Virus record (IMG/VR): IMGVR_UViG_3300022654_000395
Coordinates: 1 to 10,682 of that record
DNA: 10,682 nt
Origin: a virus
Direction: 5' to 3' (one strand)
Every line of letters begins with the position of its first letter. Position 1 is the first letter of the stretch. A model generated the notes under the pieces. The model was given only the letters and a program-made list of their open reading frames with translations, had not been told where the DNA came from and did no database searches. This document shows, piece after piece, positions 606-683 of the stretch. The translations under genes were made by a program, and so were the position numbers.

Positions 606-683
606 GGCCGCCTCCCGGATTCGAACCGGGATATGCAGGGAGAAAGAACCGAAAGCCCTGACCGTTCCAACGGCTTAGACGGC
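606..683 (-). ncRNA. tRNA-like element (degenerate or pseudo-tRNA). It has a canonical 7-bp acceptor stem, a D-arm and a perfect T-arm, but a 15-nt anticodon loop
   Basis: Minus-strand read: GCCGTCT aa GCCG ttggaa CGGT CAGGG ctttcggttctttct CCCTG catat CCCGG TTCGAAT CCGGG AGGCGGC c. The acceptor stem pairs 7/7 with one G·U. The T-loop TTCGAAT is canonical and G53-C61 is present. Deviations from a real tRNA are A8 instead of U8, a short D-loop, and a 5-bp CAGGG/CCCTG anticodon stem enclosing 15 nt that contain a CTTTC direct repeat. No CCA is encoded. Confidence 0.4.

Follow-up and report, generated by a model that had tools for sequence, protein, structure and literature searches.

A tRNA-shaped RNA with an enlarged anticodon-position loop in the head operon of Lachnospiraceae siphophages

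The DNA analysed here, called the window, is a stretch of 10,682 nt of viral origin (IMG/VR record IMGVR_UViG_3300022654_000395, positions 1 to 10,682). Ahead of a phage scaffold gene it encodes, on the minus strand at 606..683, a tRNA-shaped RNA of 78 nt in which 15 nt occupy the position of the anticodon loop. The element belongs to an RNA family which is real and previously undescribed; its function we infer. In the literature searched, no description of tRNA-like antisense RNAs or of expanded anticodon loops in phages came up. The substitution patterns among homologues indicate that the cloverleaf fold is maintained by selection, and the element probably descends from a tRNA. With about even confidence we read it as a non-decoding, tRNA-derived tRNA mimic in the late head-morphogenesis transcript of rumen Lachnospiraceae siphophages, where it would serve as punctuation cut by RNase P and RNase Z and possibly as a regulator.

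Architecture of the element and scores with tRNA models

The element and its parts are as follows.

606..683, minus: tRNA-shaped RNA, 78 nt (direct sequence reading, ARAGORN, ViennaRNA, family model R1, covariation)
683-677 / 613-607, minus: acceptor stem, 7 bp
676-675, minus: nucleotides 8 and 9, AA
674-661, minus: D arm, 4-bp stem with GG in the loop
660-656 / 640-636, minus: anticodon-position stem CAGGG/CCCTG
655-641, minus: oversized loop CUUUCGGUUCUUUCU, 15 nt
635-631, minus: variable loop, 5 nt
630-614, minus: T arm CCCGG/TTCGAAT/CCGGG, T loop at 625-619
606, minus: discriminator C

The reverse complement of 606..683 reads GCCGTCT-AA-GCCG-TTGGAA-CGGT-CAGGG-CTTTCGGTTCTTTCT-CCCTG-CATAT-CCCGG-TTCGAAT-CCGGG-AGGCGGC-C. 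The initial annotation, which was made from the letters alone, had described the D arm with its GG, the T arm CCCGG-TTCGAAT-CCGGG and an A at position 8 in place of the U8 of tRNAs. Direct reading bears this out; G53-C61 is present in the T arm, and by its cloverleaf features the element groups with the tRNAs. The acceptor stem, which had been called perfect, does have 7 bp, but one of them is a wobble (U5-G68). The stem CAGGG/CCCTG closing 15 nt, within which CTTTC occurs twice, was correctly recognised: it is evident in the sequence, and the same fold is kept by compensatory changes in 15 homologues. In ViennaRNA the cloverleaf with the 15-nt loop is both the minimum-free-energy and the centroid structure. 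The window element has no 7-nt anticodon loop with U33 and a purine at 37, and it is without G3:U70, G-1 or a long variable arm.

It had been expected that standard tRNA finders would miss the element. This holds for the Rfam tRNA model (RF00005), which does not match the window at its gathering score, nor even at E<=10. ARAGORN, however, does call the element on the minus strand, if only in forced guises. By default it reports tRNA-Arg(tcg) at exactly 606..683(-), with a weak stem (A-U, G.U, G.U, G-C and a C/U mismatch) and a 12-nt variable loop. This alternative stem is not conserved among homologues, unlike the CAGGG/CCCTG stem, which covaries (A-U to G-C in six sequences). With option -i, tRNA-Glu(ttc) is reported with an 8-nt intron, gttctttc, at 37/38. 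Dinucleotide shuffles of the window yielded 0 ARAGORN tRNA calls in 200, with or without intron mode; thus, the cloverleaf is no chance feature. ARAGORN found no tmRNA in the window. Rfam searches with the window and with L006, the member with the shortest loop among those tested there, returned no tRNA, C4 or other credible family at the gathering score or at E<=10; within the tRNA clan L006 reached 13.4 bits at best (tRNA-Sec model, gathering score 47). The covariance model R1, built in this analysis and used to recover family members, scores the window element at 90.9 bits.

Taken at face value, the intron call would turn the element into a decoding tRNA-Glu(UUC) from which a mini-intron at 37/38 is removed post-transcriptionally. 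The call fits the window (8-nt gttctttc) and L013 (19-nt intron), both at 37/38, but none of the other family loci among the eight scanned in intron mode, i.e., it covers 2/6 lineages. The loops of L003 (13 nt), L006 (9 nt) and others yield no consistent anticodon. The fold contains neither a bulge-helix-bulge nor a helix inside the loop, and the hosts are Lachnospiraceae, that is, bacteria, which to our knowledge have no tRNA-splicing endonuclease. Group I introns, in turn, are far longer than 8-31 nt. We regard a spliced, decoding tRNA as barely conceivable. The ARAGORN labels, tRNA-Arg or tRNA-Glu with intron, would consequently inflate phage tRNA repertoires wrongly, and with them inferences on codon usage.

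The RNA family: conserved body, variable loop

Homologues were searched for in IMG/VR, GTDB genomes, JGI metagenomes and an assembly index, using as anchors the scaffold protein and the product of a small upstream gene, gene X. Fifteen distinct versions of the element from about seven lineages were recovered. The relatives were found as prophages in metagenome-assembled genomes of rumen and gut Lachnospiraceae; among 50,697 cultured-phage records neither megablast nor blastn gave a match.

The pairing is preserved throughout the family, in all four stems. When six sequences were aligned with MAFFT, without bias towards the structure, 96% of cells came out paired, compared with 30-51% when the partners are slid, and five pairs have double changes. 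In the alignment of all 15 sequences 96.5% of cells are paired and 8/21 pairs carry double changes: 4/5 pairs of the T stem, two of the anticodon-position stem and two of the D stem. In 500 shuffles of this alignment the observed values were never reached, be it for the percentage of paired cells, for double changes (counted by pair and by cell) or for the covariation score. Acceptor pairs 1-4 and the T loop vary little or not at all across the family, and T(T/C)CGA(A/C)(T/C) in the T loop as well as GG in the D loop are retained. R1 gives canonical phage tRNAs 20-39 bits and family members 60-94 bits. This cross-detection of ordinary phage tRNAs indicates that the body of the element is tRNA-like.

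These data bear on the proposal, made at the outset, of a decayed phage tRNA, i.e., a once-functional gene whose anticodon loop was destroyed and which is now neutral. The missing canonical loop, the A at position 8 and the absent Rfam tRNA score would suit such a pseudogene; the element is lost entirely in some related phages, and the loop of the window looks further degraded. Yet the body is under purifying selection: substitutions in the T, anticodon-position and D stems have been compensated across seven diverged lineages, and acceptor pairs 1-4, the T loop and a CCUCC motif in the loop are conserved. The locus of the window phage is identical in five independent assemblies. None of the homologues at this site has an intact loop of 7 nt. 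Of the two observations named beforehand as speaking against a tRNA-like gene, the lack of a covariance-model score is seen with the Rfam tRNA model, whereas acceptor and T-arm pairing, far from being lost, is clearly conserved in relatives. A decaying pseudogene is, to our mind, quite improbable.

The loop presents a different picture. It measures 8-31 nt over all 15 copies and 7 nt in none of them (0/15). No canonical anticodon can therefore be assigned, neither to the 15-nt loop of the window, as had been stated from the outset, nor to any other member. The loop is the fastest-changing part of the element; in L003 and L006, for example, the flanks are nearly identical and the loops are 13 nt and 9 nt long. 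Despite this hypervariability, 14/15 loops possess CCUCC next to the closing strand, on its 5' side; the window loop is the sole one in the family without it. The long loops also have (C)AUAC(G)/CAU in common, 6-7 nt upstream of CCUCC. The loop of L013 reads CACCUCCUUUC, which is also the 3'-terminal sequence of Firmicute 16S rRNA. On the sense strand the order UCCUCC, 6-7 nt, CAU is the complement of a standard Shine-Dalgarno (SD) sequence, spacer and AUG. The conserved CCUCC is best fitted by a function directed against ribosome-binding sites (anti-RBS).

The window copy is the most degenerate family member. Compared with L013, L004 and L008 its loop has the 5' CUUUCG in common and keeps the 3' CUUUC, while the middle section and CCUCC are missing. 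A small duplication had been suggested as the origin of the repeated CTTTC; set against the longer loops of L013 and L004, the loop instead looks like a shortened derivative of a 25-31-nt loop.

Read on the opposite strand, CCUCC...CAU becomes GGAGG-N5-9-ATG, which would permit the start of a small antisense open reading frame (ORF). Lineages A, B, C and G indeed offer a good RBS with ATG and open frames of 13-67 codons. These frames are not conserved, however: D-loop indels of 1-2 nt shift them (L324 vs L325, L204 vs L231), an ATG is lacking in L013, L003, L006 and the window, and no promoter-like site was found on that strand. We consider an antisense ORF highly improbable.

Equally improbable is a separate proposal, that of a 3' tRNA half retained from an old integration (att) site. 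The cloverleaf is complete, it resides within a head-morphogenesis operon with no integrase in the window, and many phages have it in a syntenic position. When IMG/VR was scanned with a T-arm/acceptor pattern, the matches listed were, beyond the known relatives, ordinary tRNA-Phe, tRNA-Thr or tRNA-Arg genes, att-type 3' halves or chance matches; the true att-type halves look different from the element.

The tRNA-like RNA is missing in the sister phages L005, L011, L012, L016, L024, L028 and L206, in which the neighbouring terminator and scaffold leader are kept. It is thus an accessory insertion at a fixed slot.

Two further occupants of this slot were observed. In L014 and L015 a different, non-canonical element is situated about 90 nt upstream of the scaffold leader, with GCCTCC...GGAGGC closing an 8-bp hairpin and an arm containing GGTTCAACT. 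Neither R1 nor ARAGORN detects it; it may be a remote or degenerate relative of the tRNA-like RNA. L005 and L007, which are without the tRNA-like RNA, have a mini-hairpin GCCCG-AAAA-CGGGC between terminator and leader. Its ends resemble the acceptor stem (GCC...GGC), and it may be a deletion scar.

Position in the head operon and proposed role

The window is a head module of a Firmicute siphophage. All its large genes are on the minus strand, and the element is co-oriented with TerS, TerL, portal and MuF. The small accessory genes downstream of MuF include YjcQ, gene X and gene Y.

7799-7260, minus: small terminase
7260-5854, minus: 468-aa ORF in the large-terminase position, without Pfam match, presumed large terminase
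5854-4253, minus: portal
4160-1782, minus: minor capsid protein of MuF/SPP1-gp7-like type, C terminus with ADP-ribosyltransferase toxin domain (PF03496, 1.6e-18)
952..1182, minus: gene X, small and conserved in phages (uncharacterised phrog_34105)
718..915, minus: gene Y, ORF of 65 aa preceding the terminator and following gene X (uncharacterised phrog_2616)
685..713, minus: intrinsic terminator-like hairpin AAAGCATCGG ACAA CCGGTGCTTT with T run (10-bp stem, five GC pairs, T tail)
529..605, minus: structured leader of the scaffold mRNA, about 77 nt (covariation, 90.5% of cells paired)
1..528, minus: scaffold gene, SD at 528-522, ATG at 516-514, running off the window (PF06810 Phage_scaffold, 1.3e-40; phrog_194)

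The order terminator, tRNA-like RNA, pseudoknotted leader, scaffold gene is constant in the family. A hairpin with T run directly precedes every member. In the window the hairpin proper occupies 713..690 (-) and is followed by the T run, AT and G683, i.e., the terminator ends 2 nt upstream of the element on the coding strand, exactly as initially annotated. On the other side, the conserved leader begins 1-3 nt downstream of the element in every member. CCA is not encoded; in every copy the discriminator is followed by UCG, AUCG or UUCG, which places a U at most 2 nt downstream of it. Promoter scans found no sigma-70-like promoter near the element on either strand.

Among the roles considered at the outset, a tRNA mimic acting as a processing signal is best supported: the slot is fixed, the element has no promoter of its own, acceptor, T arm and elbow are conserved, CCA is lacking and a U is close by. 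We propose that RNase P and RNase Z would cut transcripts reading through the terminator, the former at G1 and the latter behind the discriminator. These cuts would separate the upstream accessory-gene mRNA, ending in a protective terminator hairpin, from the scaffold/capsid mRNA, which would then start with a 5'-proximal hairpin of the leader (P1). This would amount to tRNA punctuation as with mascRNA and plant t-elements. The excised RNA of about 78-95 nt would be stable. In 14/15 variants its enlarged loop would expose CCUCC (anti-SD), in many cases preceded by CAU at a distance of 6-7 nt; this points to an additional function as an anti-RBS riboregulator. As the loop of the window has shrunk to 15 nt and lost CCUCC, only the processing role probably remains there. 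If this is correct, these Firmicute phages punctuate a structural-gene transcript with a tRNA mimic. We know of tRNA-mimic punctuation documented for mammalian long non-coding RNAs and for organelles, and of none for phage morphogenesis operons. The RNA set free would then carry an anti-SD loop on a tRNA body, which makes it a candidate for a compact and evolvable repressor of translation.

The nearest functional likeness of the element is to tRNA-like processing modules, possibly with an add-on reminiscent of the phage C4 RNA. In mascRNA and menRNA (from MALAT1 and MEN-beta) and in plant mitochondrial t-elements, a tRNA-like module is the substrate of RNase P and RNase Z: cleavage yields a small tRNA-like RNA and fixes the 3' terminus of the upstream transcript, which an adjacent structure protects; both enzymes recognise acceptor/T-arm mimics whatever the anticodon arm (PMC4919922). 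Like these modules, the phage element is tRNA-shaped, non-decoding and contained in a longer transcript without its own promoter. Unlike them, it is part of a bacteriophage operon, not eukaryotic or organellar, and its anticodon arm is enlarged with a conserved CCUCC, whereas that of mascRNA is reduced. The likeness is a functional analogy in which cleavage of the phage element is presumed. The Rfam mascRNA-menRNA model gives L006 its best, if weak, match (20 bits, gathering score 42.5) and the window none.

With canonical phage tRNAs (RF00005) the element shares the cloverleaf, the 7-bp acceptor stem, GG in the D loop, a T-psi-C-type loop and a 5-nt variable loop. It differs from them by a loop of 8-31 nt rather than 7, by A8 for U8, by the missing Rfam tRNA score and by being embedded in an mRNA directly after a terminator. 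Among bacterial and phage RNAs, the tRNA-like domain of tmRNA and the Y-RNA-like YrlA also retain acceptor/T-arm/elbow mimicry, with the anticodon arm replaced by another functional module. In contrast to both, the ends of the phage element form the acceptor stem of a compact cloverleaf of 70-95 nt, and it has neither an mRNA-like ORF with pseudoknots nor a Ro-binding helix.

Several points weigh against the processing role. Cleavage by RNase P and RNase Z is purely our inference from the architecture. The element directly follows an apparently good terminator; its synthesis therefore depends on read-through or antitermination, itself presumed. As sister phages do without it, scaffold expression does not require it, and the conserved CCUCC of the loop finds no explanation in processing alone. 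As for the fold, the thermodynamic z-score in the window is only -1.3, so that thermodynamics taken alone is weak evidence, and the 15-sequence alignment (A4) was fitted to the model and is thus biased towards structure; the independent MAFFT alignment (A2) agreed with it.

A tRNA shape could also act as a decoy or sponge which titrates a tRNA-targeting defence nuclease of the host or of a rival phage, a tRNA-modifying enzyme, or a binder of the anti-SD-like tail. The conserved elbow, acceptor and T arm would be in keeping with this, as would the neighbourhood: the toxin domains of the adjacent MuF are polymorphic (ADP-ribosyltransferase in the window, CdiA_C, the C-terminal domain of contact-dependent-inhibition toxins, in relatives), which marks the region as a conflict hotspot. 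Known anticodon nucleases, however, read a specific 7-nt anticodon loop, which 0/15 members possess. Moreover, the presence of the element is independent of toxin type; it accompanies ADP-ribosyltransferase, CdiA_C and toxin-less MuF, and is absent from the CdiA_C loci L342 and L343. No partner protein was identified. We view a decoy as improbable.

Concerning MuF itself, the C-terminal toxin of the window protein matches the architecture known as MuF polymorphic toxin; in relatives the toxin position holds a CdiA_C domain or no toxin. The small genes downstream of MuF (a 53-aa ORF, YjcQ) could include an immunity protein.

The scaffold leader is a second candidate RNA motif outside Rfam, where it has no match, and is possibly a new cis-regulatory RNA. 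Its P1 hairpin, CGUCC/GGACG (604-600 / 586-582, minus), carries a loop GUAUCUCC (594-587) which pairs with a downstream GGAGAGAC (575-568) as an H-type pseudoknot. Next comes P2 (560-556 / 549-545), whose ACUGAA loop (GGACUGAACC) is invariant, and then an A-rich stretch and the SD. Twenty-two distinct variants were aligned (e.g., L003-L016, L024, L028, L206, L219), including phages without the tRNA-like RNA: 90.5% of cells are paired, 7/17 pairs have double changes, and 0/500 shuffles reach the observed values.

Candidate pairing partners of the loop

The most substantial rival explanation, compatible with the processing role and additive to it, is an antisense riboregulator of the C4 type: the loop would be a seed pairing with the SD and start codon of a specific mRNA, the translation of which it represses, and the tRNA shape would provide processing and stability only. 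Gene X is the first candidate target, the scaffold gene in cis an alternative. The complementarity of the loops to SD-spacer-AUG speaks for the idea; on balance we regard a C4-like regulator as unlikely.

In C4, the loops base-pair with the ribosome-binding region of another gene of its operon, and it is through differences in these loops that related phages differ in specificity. The C4 antisense RNA of phages P1/P7 is cited in one article as an RNA of about 77 nt which is cut from an operon transcript by RNase P (PMC4919922, citing Hartmann et al. 1995). The element resembles it as a phage small RNA of similar size within an operon transcript, its own excision being presumed. Unlike the element, C4 lacks a complete cloverleaf with T loop and D-loop GG, and its hosts are Gram-negative. 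The Rfam C4 model matches neither the window nor L006 at E<=10, which also speaks against a C4-like assignment.

Gene X is located upstream of the element in 13/15 members; its product has 77-90 aa, and 111 homologues were found. Pairing of loops with its initiation region was compared with a background of 414 SD-containing initiation regions. The loop of L203 forms 12 contiguous bp with gene X, from SD through AUG, and 0.2% of the background regions are as good. In the loci of L004, L203 and L204, no other initiation region pairs better with the loop than that of gene X. By duplex energy, however, the cognate gene X sites in the best lineages rank only in the 4th-12th percentile of the 414 regions, and in the window, L003/L006, L231, L325/L328 and L332 pairing is no better than background. 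Within lineage B (L204, L332, L231) the loop is identical while the gene X initiation region changes, i.e., there is no covariation, and L013 keeps CCUCC although no gene X is found within the approximately 730 nt available upstream. Gene X as a specific antisense target, promising in three members, thus failed the background tests for most, including the window; specific targeting of gene X by the loop is not established.

In the window, gene X is interrupted by an in-frame TGA (1026-1024); at this codon relatives encode Arg, the change being CGA to TGA. The part downstream of it is still in frame and conserved. The window locus including this TGA is identical in five independent metagenome assemblies, hence it is no sequencing error; gene X of the window may have become a pseudogene recently, or its TGA may be read through. 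The lineage of the window is the only one without CCUCC in the loop and the only one with a premature stop in gene X. At first sight this speaks for the C4-like reading, yet it is a single co-occurrence and as such not evidence. A suppressor tRNA for the TGA was also considered and discarded, the window loop containing no UCA.

Pairing of the loop with the scaffold SD in cis is predicted in 5/13 members (window, L003, L006, L013, L205; P 0.84-1.0). In silico this supports the alternative target, but it is confined to these members and comes at the cost of melting the cloverleaf. It shows no covariation: L204 and L332 have a changed SD and an unchanged loop. The same applies to pairing between the loop and GGAGAGAC of the leader, since in L008 and L231 the leader has changed and the loop is kept. 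Both candidates were rejected.

The best duplex of the window loop within the window has 14 bp (two G.U) and -21.7 kcal/mol; its partner is at about 6680..6700 in the 468-aa ORF, within GGAAGAGCCGAAAG. We rejected this complement as probably a chance match in purine-rich coding sequence; by a rough estimate, made before considering composition, about 0.04 such matches are expected.

One may, speculatively and with considerable doubt, go further and envisage a new class of phage riboregulators. In these a tRNA scaffold would afford excision by RNase P and RNase Z, CCA addition and stability, and a programmable anti-SD plus anti-AUG sequence would replace the anticodon. Excised from the late transcript, such RNAs would silence phage or host mRNAs in trans, and rapid turnover of the loop between near-identical phages would set target specificity, as in the C4 heteroimmunity of P1/P7. 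In the window copy the seed would then have been altered or lost, in company with the nonsense mutation of gene X.

A minor observation concerns the surroundings of gene X in other members. A perfect 15-bp palindrome, TTATCACGGTGATAA, occurs three times around the gene in L004 (about 2360-2740), L008, L204, L231 and L332; it is absent from the window. One copy immediately precedes the SD of gene X and two follow the gene, and one overlaps a weak promoter-like site. The palindrome looks like an operator for a repressor.

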